From: an uncultured delta proteobacterium
GTDB taxonomy: Bacteria; Desulfobacterota; WTBG01
Assembly: GCA_963793865.1 (NCBI GenBank)
Contig: CAWCBP010000005.1
Span: 1 to 25,423, forward strand
DNA: 25,423 nucleotides
Direction of reading: 5' to 3'
The position numbers are program-made. Below are positions 1 to 18,000 of this stretch, in pieces (positions within the stretch are counted from its first letter, which is position 1; each line of letters begins with the position of its first letter).

Positions 1-3000
1 TGCTCTATGTAGAAAATCTCCTACCATTAAATTAAAGGCGGGAAGCTTTTCGGCCGCCCGCCTTATCAATTCATAAAAATCAGACATAATTACGCAAGAT
101 GGTGTTTCCGACGGAGCCGTTCAGACAGTATCCTGGTAATGGAAAATGCCTTTTCCACGGTCGCTTCACGGTCAGGGTTTACCAGGCAGCAGGTGGCGGG
201 AGAAAGCATGCTCCGTTTCAGAAGATATTCGAGATCAATCCCCTGCTTTGTCAATTTCGCCCATAAGTTCTCAAGCAGTTTTTCCAGAGATTCGATGCTT
301 TCTTTCTCAAATGGTTCAATGTTGGTGGGAATGCCGCCCCAGATAATTATGCCTCCCCGGTCCAGAAATCTGCGGATGGAGCGCGCATAGGCAGTGAATA
401 TCTCACCGTTGCTGTAGGTGTCGAGTGACAACACATCGATGTCGAGATTGAGCAGAAAATCCCAGTCAGGATTACCGCAGAGGTGAATGCCGCGCGGGCG
501 TTCCACCAGCGAAAAAAACGTTTCCAGGTCACGCTTTGCCGCAACATCGCCATACCCTGACATGCCGCTGAAAACAAACTGCAACCCCGGTTCGTCGATA
601 AACATGAAGGCATGAGGATGACGCTTCTTAAGCTTGGCAAGCTGAACATTGACCCGCCGCGCCATAAAATCAATCATGAATGGACGGACGGTATCGTCGA
701 AAATGATCGGCCGTCCGTCCTGGTCGTTGACATTAAAACCAAAACTTACCGGCCCCTCAAGCTGTCCCCGAATGGCCGCCCGGCCAGTGAAATCGAGACC
801 CAGGAACCGGTGATATACTGACGAATAGGTTTCGCTTATATCAAAGTACTCCGGCTCTTCAAAATGAGCCATGGCCCCCTCAATCTCCTTGACAAACTTA
901 TCAAAGGAAAAGCGCAGCGTCCGTTCCTGCATGTTCAAAACGATCCCGGGGAAATGCTCCGAGGCCTGAACATACATGTCCTCGTAATAGCTGTAATGAG
1001 GCAGTTGCGGCCAGAAGGGCACATCCAGCGAAAGTGACGCCCTGAGCGCGCGATCAACGTCGGTGTGCGGCATGACCGCCATTGCAGTGGTGAGAAGATT
1101 CCCCGGGATGCTCATGCCTTATTTCCAGCTGAAAATTTATTGTCTTGACGTGAATCGAGATTCATTTCTCTCGTTAGATAATATTATTCAGCAAAAGGAT
1201 ACTATGCAAGGATTATAATCAATAATACCGACGGCAAAGATAAAGGATATACCATCATGGGAACATCAGGTTTATTCGATGAAGTTTTTGGCACACCGGG
1301 GAGAAAATGTGCGGCATCGGTTTGATCTTCACTCGGTTCATGGGTAATCTGAGTTATATCGCACAGAGACAAGGTGTTTGACCTATCAGCCAAAAGGTGG
1401 TAAAAAACCGGCAACGGCCCATCCGTCCGGGGAAAGAGTTTGTTATTCGGCATCTTATTGCACGTCGCGTACAGTTTCCACTGTTTTATCCATGAAGTCC
1501 TTCAATAACCCGACCGCCTCCACACGTGCATTATTATAATAACGCAGAGATATGTGGAGTAGGACACCGTGAAAAAATTCTTTGAGGTGCATGACCGTTT
1601 CTTCCGTATTCCCTTCATGGTAGCAGCGGGTACGGCTCTGCTTGCAACTATTATTCATGGGTGCGGAATGGGCAAAAACCTGACCATGGTTGTGCAGGAG
1701 TTCCCCCGGGCTTCTACCTGCGGGCACTGCCACATTGATATTTTCAACGAATGGTCGGCATCACCTCACGCTGAGGCGTATACGAACCCGCGATACCGTG
1801 AAGCCACCGACGAATATCGATTTACCGAATGTCTTGGTTGTCACACCCCGGAACCGGCAGTGAGCAATATCACACCTTCACATCGCGCAATCTACCGGGA
1901 TGAGGGAGTGACGTGCATATCCTGTCACCTCGAAGAAGGGAAGCTGTCCGGACCATTATCCCCCACCGGGATGGTGACACCGCATCCTGTGGGGGTGGAT
2001 GCAGATCAGTATCGTGACAGTCGCTTCTGTGGTCGCTGCCATGAAGGAACGTTCGCTGAGTGGGGCACGGTTACAATGAAAGATAAGCGAACCTGCCAGC
2101 AGTGCCATATGCCGGAGCAAATACGCAAGATAACCCAGCCGGCGGGAACACTCTCCAGGTTTCTCGTCTCCTTTGAAAAGAATGTTGTACAAAAGCGCCA
2201 CACCTTTGCCGCTATTCCGGGCGAGCTCGAGATCAAACCCTATTCGCTAGAGATACGGTATCATAAAGAAAAAGCGACGATTACCGCAACCAATAATCTG
2301 CCGCATTCTCTTCCCGCCGGTGACTTCGGCATACGGATTAATGTGCTCAGTGTCTCAATAGTTGATGCAAAAGGGGATCATACCGCTATTGCTGAAAGGG
2401 AGCTCATCAAGGATCTGGGAAGTGCCATTCCACCGCAATCATCAGTTGAATGGGAAGTTGCTATCCCCCCGGAAGCGCGGGAGATTTGTGTGAGGATGAC
2501 CCGCAGGGGGTATGAAAATATTGATACGCACGAATTAATGCAGACAGTGATCCTTTTACCATGAAGAGTTTGTTTCGCCGCTTTTCTCCACTCGCCATTG
2601 CTTTCCATTGGTGCCATGGGATTCCCTATGTGGTGCTTTTTACCACCGGGACAATCATTTGTTTACAGCGGATGCTTGCCCGGGAAATCATAGAGCACGC
2701 GGTGCTGTCCCTGGTTCATCGGGTTGCAGGCATCGTACTGGTGGCAGTCCTGGCACAGCTTGCTCTTCTGCTCTTATATTCGAGAGGCCTCACGTCTTGC
2801 CTGCGGACACTTCGTGATGTGGCGGCCTGGAGAGCGCGCGACCTGATCTGGTTTTTGAAAATCCCGCTCAATGCTGTTTTCCCGGGTTTCAGCCTCCCCC
2901 CGGCGGGACGGTTCAACCCGGGGCAAAAGCTGAATATTCTGGCTGTTCTGATACTGCTGGGCGGGTTCAGTGTCTCCGGAATTTTCATGATGATCATTCC

Positions 3001-15000: not shown

Positions 15001-18000
15001 CCCGCTGCTCAAGAGACAGACACTATTCTGGAATACCTGAAAGATCACGGGGTTCTTATTGGTAAAACCGGGGCAGGTAGAAATGTTCTTACTTTTCAAC
15101 CACCCTTAATTATCTCAAAAGATCAGATTGATCAGGTCGTAACAACACTGGATCGCGCCCTGGCTCAGCCCATGGCTAAAAGCGCGTGAAGAGGATGAGG
15201 CTTTTCCTTGTAATGTGCAATATCACCGGATTATCTCACCTGTAAAAATGCAAGGCAAACCTCCGAAGCAGGCGTGAGGAAGTTCCAACCATCCCCATGT
15301 CAAGCGGAAAACAAATTCATGAAGATATTGCTTGTTTATCCTGCACCGGAACGATTTCCCATCAGCGTCTATCAATATCGTTATGTTTCGGTTCCCGCCA
15401 TATTGACGCACATGGCCGCCCTGACTCCTCCTGAACACAGCATCAGGCTCGTCGATATGATGGTTGGTGACCCTGTGCCATATAACGAGGCGTTCGATCT
15501 CGTTGGTATCACAGTTCGAACCCCTATGGCACCTGTTGCCTATCAGATTGCGGACCGGTTCCGCGCACAGGGAATCACGGTTGTGCTGGGAGGAGCTCAC
15601 GTTTCCGTGCTGCCGGAAGAAGGAAAGACACATGCAGACTCGGTAATTATTGGTGAAGCAGAGGACACCTGGAGTTTGCTCCTGCATGATCTTGAAACTC
15701 AGCAGATGGCAGACTATTACGTTTGCGGACCTCATGAAACCAACATGCTAAAAGGGCGGGTGAGGCATCTACCGCAGCGCCCGAACTTGAAAGGTCTGCC
15801 TGCTCCACGCACTGATCTGCTTGATCGCGACAGGTACATCATGGATACTTTTATGACCACCCGCGGCTGTGTTTTTGGCTGTCGTTTTTGTAATGTGCAG
15901 CCACTGTTTGGATCGCACATACGTCACCGTCCAATTCCAGAGGTAATAAAAGAGCTGATTGATGCACGTCGACTTTTGCTTTCCGTGGATGACAATGTAT
16001 TCGGAGCACCGGGGGATGCAGACTATTACCTGCAGCTCTATGGGGCGATGAAGGACCTCAGACCCGCCAGGTATTGGGCCGGACAAGGTTCGCTTGCGGT
16101 GGCATCCTATCCCCGGGCTGACAAACTGCTTGAAACAGCCTCCAGAAGCGGTTTGTCGCTTTTAACCGCAGGTATTGAGGCGTTGGATTGCACGGGGCTT
16201 GAAGAAAGCGGTGCTTACCGGAAGCTCGGGCTTGTGCATGCAGAAAACATGTCTGCCTGGCAGACCGGTGAAAGCATCAAGAAGATTCAAAGTTATGGTA
16301 TCAATGTGCTCGGGTATTTCATCATAGGATTCCGGCAGGATACCATGAGTTCATTTGACCGCGTATTGGAGTTCTGCGATCACCATTCGATCATACCGGT
16401 ACCCATTCTTCTCCATCCTCTACCCGGCACGGAACTCTATGATGAATATGTGCGGGAAGGTCTCATGCGGGACGGGGCCGACTGGGCCGATTTTGATGGG
16501 GCCCATTTAGTGCTTCTCCATCCGGCATTTGAGAAAACCGGCATTGAGACGGCCTACATAAAAAAAGTGATGGAAGCAAACAGTCTCGCGCGACGGACAA
16601 GACGGAACCTGCTGCGGCTTTTTGCGAATCCGCGAATCGACAGCGCCATAAACTTCTACAAAACCCAGCAGGTGATGCATCGGGGAATACGTGAGTACGT
16701 AAACTGCATGAACCATTCGGAGTGAAAGACTGCTCGGCATGCCACCGGCCGGAAACCATGCAAATCCAGGACACGGGAGGAAACAGGCAAGCAAGAAAAA
16801 ATGGAACGGGCAGTGAAAAGAAGAAAGGGGGGAGCCGGTCTGCAAGGGCTGCCGTGCGGACAATAGAGCTTATCCGGAGTTGATTCATTGTTTATAGCCA
16901 GAACTCGGGATATTTCCTCTTGGCGGGAATATTATTAACCAGGAGGGCTATAACCAGCATAATGGCGGCACCAGTTCCAACCGGCACAATCGTATACCAG
17001 TACCCAAGATCATGAATCTTATCGCTCCCGGTTACGGCTATCAGGGCGGTCGCCCCGCCGGGCGGATGCAGGGTCCTTGTGGCATGCATAACCGCAAGAG
17101 AAGTGGCAACAGCGAGAGCGGATGCCAACCACATCTGATCGTGAAAGAACTTTTGGGCAGTAACACCAATAAGGGCTGAGATAATGTGCCCGCCGAGGAG
17201 GTTCCTTGGCTGGGCCAGGGGACTTCTCACCACACCGTACAGTAAAACCGCTGAAGCCCCAAACGATCCTGTTATAAATAAGATATCACCATTATTAAAA
17301 AGATTATAATGAATCCATGCAACCACACCAATGCCGAGAAAAGCCCCGGTCCATGACCACAGAATCTCGGAGAGGCTTACCCCGGGGGGGCTCTTCGTGG
17401 TGCCCCGCATTTTGCTCAGGTAATGACGTAGTGTTTCCATGACCAACCGGCGCTATCACCGCGCAGCATTGTTAACCGTTACCGGTTCTATCTCGATATT
17501 CTGCCGACCGGCATCTTCAGCAGATCACCCCTGGTGACTATTCCTTTCAAAACGGCAGCGCTATCAACGACAGGAATTCTATTAATCTTTTTTTCATGAA
17601 AGAGGGTGTTGATTTCAAAAACGGTGGCGTTTTCAATGACGGTAATGGCAGGCGCGGTCATAATATCGCGGGCTTTCTGAGCACGGATGGGCATGACAAG
17701 ACACCATTTATTCCTCAAACAGTTTGCAATCACCGCCATGAAATTTGTTGCACTGCCATCTCCCATGGTGCGGAGAAAGTCCTTTTCAGAAATAACACCG
17801 ACAACCCTTTTCCCTTCATCGACAATGGGTAACCCTGATATCCCCTTCTTACCCATCAGCTGCGCTACTTCTTCAAGTGAAGCAGCAGGGGTAACGGAAA
17901 CAACATTTACAGTCATAATGTCCTTTGCTTTAATTGACTCCACTACTCTCTGAAAGGCCTTGCGACAGGCAATGGTATAGATGTGCTTAAAATCTTCCGC

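Follow-up and report, generated by a model that had tools for sequence, protein, structure and literature searches.

Twelve genes of an acquired island as a possible tailoring-and-export branch of the futalosine pathway

What compound is made by a row of twelve genes that joins an adenylate-forming enzyme, a reductase, an aminotransferase and a U32 Fe-S enzyme to a transporter and multihaem cytochromes? The row is located in the window, i.e. the whole stretch of 25,423 nucleotides analysed here (contig CAWCBP010000005.1 of an uncultured delta proteobacterium, assembly GCA_963793865.1). As described in the initial annotation, all 12 ORFs are present on the + strand between positions 1569 and 16725, and their intergenic gaps and overlaps are compatible with one operon. 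The same annotation read the row as a cluster that modifies and exports a quinone-type membrane compound without O2, and this assignment is supported by the results below. We give about an even chance to the reading that the operon, carried by an acquired island of ~17 kb, forms a branch of the futalosine (menaquinone) pathway for tailoring and export, where a vitamin-K2 precursor would most likely be diverted into an amine-bearing, O2-independently hydroxylated quinone-type compound.

The adenylate-forming enzyme (ANL; 10639..11757, +) is of the truncated EhpF/ThnN type, without C-terminal subdomain. Its Pfam match to AMP-binding covers the residues 184-258 (E 1.6e-5). A profile of 15 sequences compared with the PDB detects EhpF (3l2k, 3hgu/3hgv) with an E-value of 9e-42 over the residues 12-339, and the likeness to EhpF is thus stronger, by sequence alone, than had been claimed. 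The previously noted P-loop G-E-T-A-G-T-T-G-x-P-K is kept across the 15 sequences, and 1027 relatives of the enzyme were recovered. The stand-alone thioester-reductase-type SDR (TR; 6068..7267, +) matches NAD_binding_4 (186.5 bits, E 6.6e-55), TIGR01746 (E 1.2e-44, 153 bits for a cut-off of 213) and the carboxylic acid reductase model NF041592 (E 3.1e-24, 84.7 bits for a cut-off of 1300) and, in the PDB, the R domains of MxaA (2.4e-25) and CAR (7.5e-14). Its TGxxGxxG motif and catalytic residues T141, Y167 and K171 are invariant in 10 sequences. The third enzyme is a class-III (omega-type) aminotransferase (AT; 13885..15189, +; Aminotran_3 351.5 bits, NF005993 388.7 bits). In the proposed pathway, the ANL would activate the C6 carboxylate of 1,4-dihydroxy-6-naphthoate (the product of MqnD), the TR would reduce the activated carboxylate to the aldehyde and the AT would convert the aldehyde into an aminomethyl group. 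The position of a class-III AT beside an adenylase and a thioester-type reductase points to this amination of a side carbon and not to amination of a ring.

Adenylation, NAD(P)H reduction to an aldehyde and transamination to a primary amine are shared with the CAR and omega-transaminase cascades, although the enzyme is split here and has neither a carrier (PCP) domain nor the ANL C-terminal subdomain. In Pantoea, EhpF and EhpG (D-alanylgriseoluteic acid, a phenazine) likewise associate a truncated ANL with a dedicated reductase, and the presumed shared job is the conversion of an aromatic carboxylate into an aldehyde. Here, however, the ANL is paired with a thioester-type reductase of the NAD_binding_4 family, to which SCP2 is often fused, and the setting is that of futalosine instead of phenazine. 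ThnN/ThnO is a pair that we take to be comparable to EhpF/EhpG. A table of PMC11278526 gives EhpG as a member of the aldehyde dehydrogenase family and ehpG as adjoining ehpF in Pantoea-type phenazine clusters.

Three further genes encode a lipid-binding protein, a hydrolase and a transporter. The SCP2 lipid-binding protein (7300..7680, +; Pfam SCP2 50.9 bits) is appended to TR as a C-terminal domain in the loci L003, L065, L069 and L076 (confirmed in four of the five long forms scanned) and is fused to the hydrolase instead of TR in L077. These fusions indicate that the partner of SCP2 is the reductase or the hydrolase, with no tie to U32. Since the SCP2 domain travels with the reductase, the substrate is perhaps already lipid-anchored. 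The alpha/beta hydrolase (abH; 7637..8434, +, real start probably near 7721-7727) matches Abhydrolase_1, DLH and other families; its Ser-Asp-His triad is intact, S159, D208 and H237 being invariant in 39/39 sequences, and it would act at some step left unplaced in the pathway. The MMPL/HAE3-type RND transporter with a sterol-sensing-like domain (8409..10625, +; MMPL 91.6 bits; TIGR00921 203 bits for a cut-off of 352) would move the product. Fatty-acyl and lipid substrates are the usual ones for NAD_binding_4 reductases, SCP2 and MMPL, and the cluster lacks both a carrier protein and the C-terminal subdomain of the ANL, all of which counts against the futalosine branch. The operon could instead make an amino lipid derived from a fatty acid: ANL and TR would convert a long-chain acid into an aldehyde, AT would yield a fatty amine, U32 would hydroxylate the chain, MMPL would export the product and the futalosine neighbours would be coincidental. 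The membership of TR in the fatty-acyl reductase family and the aptness of SCP2, hydrolase and MMPL for lipid handling agree with this possibility. We nevertheless consider it unlikely, as no fatty-acid synthesis genes were seen in the loci scanned, the nearest solved relative of the ANL works in an aromatic (phenazine) pathway, and Mqn genes are intermingled with those of the cluster in various gene orders, as detailed below.

The initial annotation had recognized a pair of U32 genes and, with the SCP2 protein, a UbiT/U/V-like trio. The two U32 ORFs (11819-13021 and 12958-13866) are in fact one gene for a fused double-U32 Fe-S enzyme (11819..13866, +), split by a deletion of one nucleotide at 12981-12986. 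The frame changes between 12982 and 12985 in tblastn, the site is a T4C2 run, and contigs of three runs from three other studies have one extra base that restores the frame; in relatives, the enzyme is a single ORF of ~670 aa. The N-terminal half matches UbiU (E 1.8e-45 for the first ORF, with TrhP at 2.6e-53) and the C-terminal half UbiV. The conserved cysteines form the motif CX6CX15CX3C and a second four-Cys set. All the family scores of the initial annotation were reproduced (NAD_binding_4, TIGR01746, NF041592, UbiT, UbiU, TrhP, aminotransferase and AMP-binding), whereas the match of the second ORF to UbiV was found again with another value (1.1e-8 instead of 3e-7). The three Ubi models are nevertheless all far below their cut-offs (for UbiT NF047962, E 2.5e-6 and 27.8 bits against 46.9), and the trio dissolves into one U32 protein and an SCP2 domain fused elsewhere to reductase or hydrolase. 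The E. coli system UbiU/UbiV/UbiT, acting in O2-independent ubiquinone hydroxylation, shares the U32 Fe-S proteins, the four-Cys motifs, an SCP2 protein encoded nearby and an anaerobic quinone setting; it differs from the fused polypeptide found here, whose scores are below the curated cut-offs, whose relatives have SCP2 fused to reductase or hydrolase, and whose context is naphthoquinone and not ubiquinone. In the proposed pathway, the fused enzyme would hydroxylate the compound without O2.

The resemblance of U32 and SCP2 to UbiU/V/T in profile matches speaks for the previously proposed product, an anaerobically hydroxylated, ring-aminated (rhodoquinone-like) benzoquinone. This product nevertheless seems very improbable: besides the low Ubi scores and the tie of SCP2 to the reductase, the setting is that of futalosine and naphthoquinone, the substrates of class-III aminotransferases are aldehydes and ketones, and the enzyme set fits a side-carbon aminomethyl. 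Known rhodoquinone formation relies on RquA acting on ubiquinone. RquA is named for rhodoquinone formation in a passage of the survey PMC11707229.

The synteny across phyla announced previously is real and far wider than stated. The core (EhpF-type adenylase, thioester-type reductase, SCP2, Ser-Asp-His hydrolase, MMPL, U32 and class-III aminotransferase) was detected in 80 loci, from all anammox genera, Phycisphaerae, Pirellulales, Hydrogenedentota, Victivallales, Auribacterota, Sedimenticolaceae and other Gammaproteobacteria, Acidobacteriota and Desulfobacterota. In agreement with the claim of absence elsewhere in the phylum, the adenylase was detected in 0/400 other genomes searched (E<=1e-20). 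The module is nested. The base set of ANL, TR, abH and MMPL occurs without U32 and without AT, AT is present without U32 in seven loci, and all 48 loci that continue past U32 have AT, adjoining U32. No paper describing the module or its proposed compound was found in the literature.

The link to quinones, for which one locus among futalosine genes had been cited, is now much stronger: Mqn genes are present in 13 of the 80 loci and, in five lineages or more, are mixed with those of the cluster in differing gene orders. MqnD (typed by PDB 2czl/3a3u) is immediately flanked by ANL and AT in L057 and L059. In L072, the + strand has the abutting run TR-MMPL-ANL-AT-U32-...-abH-MqnD-nucleosidase-MqnC/E-MqnA. 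MqnA and a fused MqnE/C are immediately upstream of TR in L067, and MqnA, MqnC/E and MqnD are interleaved with the cluster in L077-L080. In the genomes G001-G003, the sole strong copies of MqnA/D are those of the cluster locus. MqnA/D (PF02621) were found in 36 of the 38 genomes with the cluster and in 4 of 14 control genomes, a figure that is partly phylogenetic since these phyla commonly have the futalosine pathway and related genomes do not count as independent. In gammaproteobacterial MAGs, mqn genes adjoin the cluster or are located near it; a passage of a survey reports that the futalosine pathway was not found in Pseudomonadota (PMC11707229). No mqn gene adjoins the operon of the window, whose genome encodes MqnA-E, MqnL and MqnP away from it on contig C8, and no anammox-type locus has one within 10 kb, the 13 mqn loci all being non-anammox. 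Both observations were counted against the futalosine branch. According to the parts of PMC4763440 consulted, paralogous mqn genes of the PM100117/18 cluster (Streptomyces caniferus) supply 1,4-dihydroxy-6-naphthoate, whose carboxylate is proposed to be activated by an AMP-ligase. There, futalosine genes belong to a specialised cluster and a PKS receives the acid for elongation, whereas the enzymes of the present module, which are of other families and occur in anaerobes of many phyla, would reduce and aminate it.

MqnL was not detected in the genomes searched (four Hydrogenedentota-type, two Victivallales and two Auribacterota), MqnP was not found in genomes of these three groups, and UbiE/MenG above the cut-off is absent from four of five such genomes. 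In Victivallales G002, neither an MqnP-type nor a MenA-type prenyltransferase was found, leaving the lipid anchor unexplained there, a point against the futalosine branch. Hydrogenedentota G003 has MenA and UbiE/MenG and is possibly just a menaquinone maker, which likewise counts against this branch. These three phyla with early mqn genes and the module, together with G003, could suggest an alternative late futalosine route where the module substitutes for MqnL/MqnP-type steps and yields ordinary menaquinone. We hold this to be quite improbable: reduction and transamination retain carbon and do not remove it, MqnL is above the cut-off alongside the module in the window's genome and in anammox genomes, and a housekeeping step would need neither exporter nor cytochromes.

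Two cytochrome genes open the operon. The first encodes a pentahaem c-type cytochrome (1569..2564, +; Pfam Cytochrome_C7 and C554, five CxxCH motifs), whose homologues are downstream of the aminotransferase in 29 of the 80 loci. The second encodes a membrane cytochrome in which a b561-type domain is joined to a c domain with 13 haems (2561..4537, +; Ni_hydr_CYTB at residues 7-184, C7/c3 domains, 13 CxxCH). The same pair adjoins the cluster in L054, L065 and L076. In the futalosine branch, these cytochromes would couple membrane electron transfer to the product or to the hydroxylase. With the same futalosine-derived chemistry, the product could also be a small non-prenylated amino/hydroxy-naphthoquinone, secreted by MMPL as an electron shuttle and reduced by the neighbouring multihaem cytochromes. 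The presence of multihaem cytochromes with MtrC/OmcA-like domain matches within or beside the cluster, an exporter in 59 of the 80 loci and the gaps in MqnP, MqnL and UbiE/MenG speak for such a shuttle. Its probability is however low, because SCP2 fused to reductase or hydrolase points to a hydrophobic substrate, HAE3/MMPL pumps are for the most part lipid movers, and G003 has MenA plus UbiE.

Two accessory B12-binding radical SAM enzymes complete the row. The first (4683..6071, +; B12-binding 66.4 bits and Radical_SAM 54.4 bits, both above cut-offs) has BchE as top NCBIfam match (93.6 bits for a cut-off of 481) and is a candidate for C-methylation. The second (15274..16725, +; B12-binding 37.1 bits, Radical_SAM 33.2 bits) displays 66% identity to the gene that opens the operon of L003. 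By clustering, such genes occur in just 4 of the 80 loci, and in this lineage they would add further decorations, probably methyl groups.

Concerning the origin of the operon, the alignment of the window to contig C36 of the same-genus genome G368 is limited to the positions 87-1120 and 18425-24107. On this contig, the g64r homologue (89% aa identity) is ~400 bp from the genes Rieske-cytb-multihaem-crp-hcp (78-80% nt identity). Since both flanks are adjacent there, the positions 1121..18424 correspond to an insertion of ~17.3 kb, and this operon-bearing island is horizontally acquired. The adjacent flanks also rule out the contig mis-binning that had been considered possible. Besides the operon, the island contains genes for an HPP membrane protein (16892-17446, -; TM_HPP 208 bits) and a CBS-pair protein (17488-18108, -; CBS 105.6 bits), unmatched beside the G368 flank and without demonstrated tie to the operon. 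At its left edge are a 22-aa remnant ORF (1257-1325) and an incomplete copy of the region comprising promoter, 5'UTR and the first four codons of hcp (1132..1268, +), 82% identical to the positions 22325-22500. This copy includes a predicted Fnr/HcpR-like box at 1145-1158, and the sequence TTGACNTGAATCRA occurs only twice, at 1145 and 22354, versus 0.08 expected.

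The operon of the window is composed of twelve successive ORFs on the + strand, at positions 1569-16725, separated by short gaps or overlapping. According to Pfam and NCBIfam, with a separate count of haems, it encodes a pentahaem cytochrome c, a membrane domain of the cytochrome b561 type to which 13 haem-c motifs are fused, two proteins with B12-binding and Radical_SAM domains, a stand-alone NAD_binding_4 protein of the thioester-reductase type (TR), an SCP2 protein, an alpha/beta hydrolase (abH), a transporter of the MMPL/HAE3 type, a protein with a weak AMP-binding match (the adenylase, ANL), two U32 ORFs that are the halves of one gene in relatives, and a class-III aminotransferase (AT). 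The gene families and scores of the initial annotation were essentially reproduced, including the fact that every score obtained with a named equivalog model is below the curated cut-off. The aminotransferase passes the Pfam model PF00202 (351.5 bits for a gathering threshold of 30.5) and attains no NCBIfam equivalog (best score of 388.7 bits for a cut-off of 574). In both radical SAM genes the B12-binding and Radical_SAM domains exceed the Pfam cut-offs, and the NCBIfam equivalogs BchE, HpnR, HpnJ, PhpK and the other named ones are all unattained. The Ser-Asp-His triad of the hydrolase is unchanged in 39 of 39 sequences. A link with hopanoids was rejected: the HpnR/J/N/A-like matches are all far below the cut-offs and no cyclase is present in the loci scanned.

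The two U32 ORFs, first described as a pair like UbiU/UbiV, are one gene broken by a deletion of 1 nt. In relatives, one ORF of about 670 amino acids encodes the whole U32 protein. A tblastn comparison with three fused U32 proteins locates a frame change, with one residue missing, between positions 12982 and 12985 of the window, in a T4C2 run (12981-12986). Logan contigs that match the window at 95-99% identity, obtained from one run in each of three different studies, all contain one extra base at the lesion: a T behind position 12980 in two of them (X2 and X3) and a C behind position 12984 in the third (X1), either of which yields a single frame; a fourth Logan run has no coverage of this site. 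Given the single frame of the relatives and the extra base in three runs, the split comes from either an assembly error or a lesion that arose recently, and not from a two-gene design in the style of UbiU/UbiV. The N-terminal half is matched by the UbiU and TrhP profiles and the C-terminal half by the UbiV profile, all below the cut-offs (in the window, 155.5 bits versus 440 for UbiU, NF047963, and 35-46.9 bits versus 275 for UbiV, NF047965). The fused relatives, with 146-194 bits for UbiU and 60-91 bits for UbiV, also miss the curated equivalog cut-offs. A four-cysteine Fe-S motif in each U32 unit is a feature of UbiU/UbiV, and a set of four cysteines is kept here in both halves, with the spacing C-x6-C-x15-C-x3-C in the N-terminal half and nearly invariant in 12 rows of the alignment in the C-terminal half. 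However, UbiU and UbiV are separate subunits forming a heterodimer, whereas the relatives of the window gene are single fused polypeptides. A sequence search of the PDB with the fused U32 gave no match.

The protein collection contains 1027 relatives of the adenylase, and a scan of species-representative genomes detected 80 module loci. By ORF clustering with a greedy longest-ORF call, in which ANL is displaced by an antisense ORF in five loci, ANL is present in 75 of the 80 loci, MMPL in 59, U32 in 56, AT in 55, TR in 54, abH in 38, a separate SCP2 gene in 37 and a B12-binding radical SAM gene in four. AT adjoins U32 in all 48 loci that extend past U32; the other eight stop at most 754 nt from it. 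Seven loci contain AT without U32. In Hydrogenedentota the set TR-SCP2-MMPL-ANL-abH is found alone; the U32-AT pair is located elsewhere in two of the four genomes and was not found with the queries used in the other two. The module parts are thus nested: a base set, then AT, then U32. Every anammox genus sampled carries the module, and the 46 anammox rows form one clade. For this reason a link with ladderane lipids was considered, and it was rejected since the module also occurs in organisms that are not known to make these lipids. The clusters of Rattray 2009 are, moreover, different FASII clusters.

In many lineages, cytochromes are encoded downstream of the module. In anammox loci (e.g. 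L029:14637-18778 and L014:15518-20998) they consist of a split b6-type cytochrome b, with N-terminal and subunit-IV-like parts, and two to three multihaem cytochromes c, the Rieske gene being absent among them; the window and the loci L054, L065 and L076 have a pentahaem cytochrome c and a b561-multihaem fusion. Brocadiaceae loci contain inserted PMT_2 and GT2 glycosyltransferase genes. In an unclassified MAG (L049:1202-4074), SdhA/SdhB-like flavoprotein and Fe-S genes, a quinone-dependent type of enzyme, are immediately upstream of the module. A recurrent protein named unk17 (e.g. in L067) has no usable match in the protein atlas; of six members scanned with Pfam, two display a C-terminal thioredoxin-like domain and nothing else.

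The adenylase is homologous to EhpF over residues 12-339 of 372 (E 9e-42). Its P-loop core TAGTTGxPK is invariant, the Pfam AMP-binding match is partial and AMP-binding_C is absent; homology in the N-terminal domain, a P-loop and no C-terminal subdomain are what characterizes the truncated ANL enzymes of EhpF type. The reductase reaches 153.1 bits with TIGR01746 (cut-off 213.35), its residues Thr141, Tyr167 and Lys171 and its glycine motif are invariant, R domains of the PDB match it, and it resembles the terminal R domains of MxaA and of carboxylic acid reductase (CAR). Contrary to CAR, which has the architecture A-PCP-R, TR matches NF041592 in the R region only (84.7 bits versus 1300), and neither Pfam nor NCBIfam detects a carrier domain in any ORF of the cluster. 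A complex of ANL and TR predicted from two alignments scored 0.00, which has no weight either way. Reductases of at least 480 amino acids represent 17 of the 54 sequences. An SCP2 domain is C-terminal in four of the five long ones scanned (L003, L065, L069 and L076), and the fifth (L060) is extended at its N-terminus, SCP2 being encoded separately; in locus L077 SCP2 is joined to the hydrolase. The initial annotation had seen in SCP2 a UbiT-like partner of U32, which is supported neither by these fusions nor by the score of the window protein with the UbiT model NF047962 (27.8 bits for a cut-off of 46.9). As a Rosetta-stone pattern, the fusions indicate that SCP2 hands the reductase and the hydrolase a hydrophobic substrate, and is not a UbiT for U32.

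No ORF of the window cluster matches the Mqn families (MqnA to MqnE, MqnL and MqnP), and the link between the operon and the futalosine pathway consists solely of neighbourhood and co-occurrence. Mqn genes are located within 10 kb in 13 of the 80 loci, all 13 non-anammox. The PF02621 groups were typed by solved structures as MqnD (TTHA1568, 2czl/3a3u) and MqnA (chorismate dehydratase SCO4506). In loci L057 and L059, MqnD is placed directly between ANL and AT. In a gammaproteobacterial MAG (L072), a tight run on the + strand contains TR-SCP2, MMPL, ANL, AT, U32, two unknowns and abH, followed by MqnD, a PNP_UDP_1 nucleosidase, MqnC/E, MqnA and, truncated where the contig ends, a further radical SAM gene. 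Ahead of the module (L072:367-2203), this locus also encodes a protein of the T_hemolysin family and another AMP-binding enzyme, which might acylate the amine. In L067, the genes just upstream of TR are MqnA and an MqnE/C double fusion, and in Victivallales and Auribacterota loci MqnA, two MqnC/E and MqnD are interspersed with the module. Apart from those in the module locus, the genomes G001 (Auribacterota), G002 (Victivallales) and G003 (Hydrogenedentota type) have no strong MqnA/D copy. PF02621 is present in 36 of 38 module-bearing genomes, the two misses being MAGs of unknown completeness, versus 4 of 14 controls. MqnL (TIGR03701) was not found in the Hydrogenedentota-type genomes G003, G437, G440 and G444, the Victivallales G002 and G446 and the Auribacterota G001 and G447, and the gammaproteobacterial MAGs contain only UbiD-type matches below the MqnL cut-off. 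A survey of Pseudomonadota (PMC11707229) reports no futalosine pathway found for that phylum, and therefore the mqn genes of the gammaproteobacterial MAGs look like cargo moving with the module. In the genome of the window, contig C8 encodes a nucleosidase resembling MqnB, two proteins of PF02621, MqnL (657 bits, above the cut-off), a prenyltransferase of the MqnP type and radical SAM enzymes of the MqnE/MqnC types; in this genome the module supplements a canonical futalosine set and does not replace it. Two genes of the geranylgeranyl-reductase family flank this mqn cluster (L091, C8:622000-641000), a hint of a partly saturated menaquinone side chain.

The module is a real, conserved biosynthetic module made of known kinds of enzymes. 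Its most likely role, to which we give an even chance, is that of a branch of the futalosine pathway devoted to C6 tailoring and export. The product of MqnD, 1,4-dihydroxy-6-naphthoate, is an aromatic carboxylate. EhpF presumably starts the reduction of a phenazine carboxylate, and the conversion of aldehydes into primary amines is established chemistry for class-III aminotransferases. In phenazine clusters, according to a table of PMC11278526, ehpF adjoins the gene of EhpG, of the aldehyde-dehydrogenase family. An aromatic acid, an EhpF-like adenylase, an R-domain-like reductase and this aminotransferase chemistry together suggest a route where the carboxylate would be converted into an acyl-adenylate by the adenylase, into an aldehyde by TR and into an aminomethyl group by AT. 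By analogy with UbiU/V, TrhP and RlhA, the double-U32 enzyme would then perform an O2-independent hydroxylation, and the two B12-binding radical SAM genes are lineage-specific extras. The PM100117/18 cluster (PMC4763440) is a precedent for the diversion of the same acid through an adenylating enzyme. If this branch is true, anaerobes put a precursor of vitamin K2 to a second use, and a widespread one; a split and carrier-free reduction of an aromatic carboxylate would also be shown. A replacement of the late futalosine steps by the module is improbable, as the module chemistry keeps the carbon and some genomes have both MqnL and the module.

Concerning the nature of the product, the MMPL pump and the fusions of SCP2 point to an intermediate that is lipophilic. 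A lipid carrying a fatty amine would fit the TR, SCP2 and MMPL families; it leaves the interleaved mqn genes unexplained and is rather unlikely. The genome G003 encodes MenA (326 bits) and UbiE/MenG (238 bits), G001 only a weak MenA-like protein, and neither MenA nor UbiE/MenG was found in G002. The absence of MqnP and UbiE in some phyla, together with the multihaem cytochromes, would suit a secreted, non-prenylated shuttle, which fits the SCP2 fusions poorly and to which we give little credit. The rhodoquinone-like ring amination proposed in the initial annotation found no support and is highly improbable. Returning to the futalosine branch, anammox bacteria and scattered anaerobes might, as a tentative and somewhat doubtful extension, make an unseen class of quinone, respiratory or shuttle: a futalosine naphthoquinone with its C6 carboxyl turned into an aminomethyl group, its ring hydroxylated by the fused U32 without O2, and served by a cytochrome b / multihaem c module of its own. 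As part of this same tentative reading, it might be the main or only naphthoquinone of the phyla devoid of MqnL. The futalosine branch, if true, would account for organisms having early futalosine genes without MqnL, and would add naphthoquinones to ubiquinone and RNA as substrates of O2-independent U32 hydroxylases. All the anammox genera sampled have the module, and the energy conservation of these bacteria has their membrane electron carriers at its centre.

Full-text literature searches found no published description of the module. New at this window are its insertion as an island into a phylum otherwise without it, the finding that the U32 pair is one gene, the fusions of SCP2 to the reductase, the nesting of base set, AT and U32, and a copy of the hcp promoter. 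The right flank (Rieske, cytochrome b, octahaem protein, crp and hcp) displays 78-80% DNA identity with contig C36 of G368, a genome of the same genus, where about 400 bp separate the Rieske gene from the homologue of the leftmost gene of the window (89% amino acid identity). As both flanks are adjacent in G368, positions 1121-18424 of the window, which span about 17.3 kb, are an insertion; the same arrangement removes the doubt about a binning error, and the contig belongs to this organism. The absence of the cluster elsewhere in the phylum was confirmed for the genomes searched, the adenylase being found in none of 400 other genomes, including one of the same genus and one of the same family, nor in G368. 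If the futalosine branch is true, a 17-kb island can bring an accessory of energy metabolism into a phylum otherwise devoid of it. In a quick SH-aLRT tree, the window adenylase groups with two Desulfobacterota-type MAGs (94), as sister to the 46 anammox-type rows (100). Scalindua-type module copies in a Thermodesulfobacteriota MAG (L026) and a Maribacter MAG (L046), nested within the Scalindua clade, are probably mis-binned contigs.

At the left edge of the island, positions 1132-1268 are a copy of the hcp promoter region 22341-22479 (82% over the aligned stretch). It holds an Fnr/HcpR-like palindrome (box at 1145-1158, with its counterpart at 22354-22367 for hcp), a ribosome-binding site and the start of hcp (four codons), and has left a remnant ORF of 22 amino acids at 1257-1325. 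In anaerobic or nitrosative conditions, the operon may be expressed from this copy; alternatively, the copy may be an insertion scar. A promoter and terminator scan of positions 1000-18500 gave counts not above those of shuffles, and the sigma-54 -24/-12 pattern had 10 matches for 15.5 expected, none ahead of the operon; sigma-54 control is not evident at this window. Histidine kinase and sigma-54 response-regulator genes are beside the module in 13 of the 80 loci, from Scalindua and several other lineages (e.g. L014:1673-4565); the window has no such genes and no -24/-12 site. Beyond the island, positions 18357-21507 form a module of Rieske protein, full-length cytochrome b and octahaem protein (78-80% nucleotide identity in the same-genus genome), the latter with a weak hydrazine-dehydrogenase-like match (54 bits for a cut-off of 900). 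Finally, positions 21550-24170 are 91% identical to a second crp-hcp region on contig C8 of the same genome (491845-494486), a match already named in the initial annotation.
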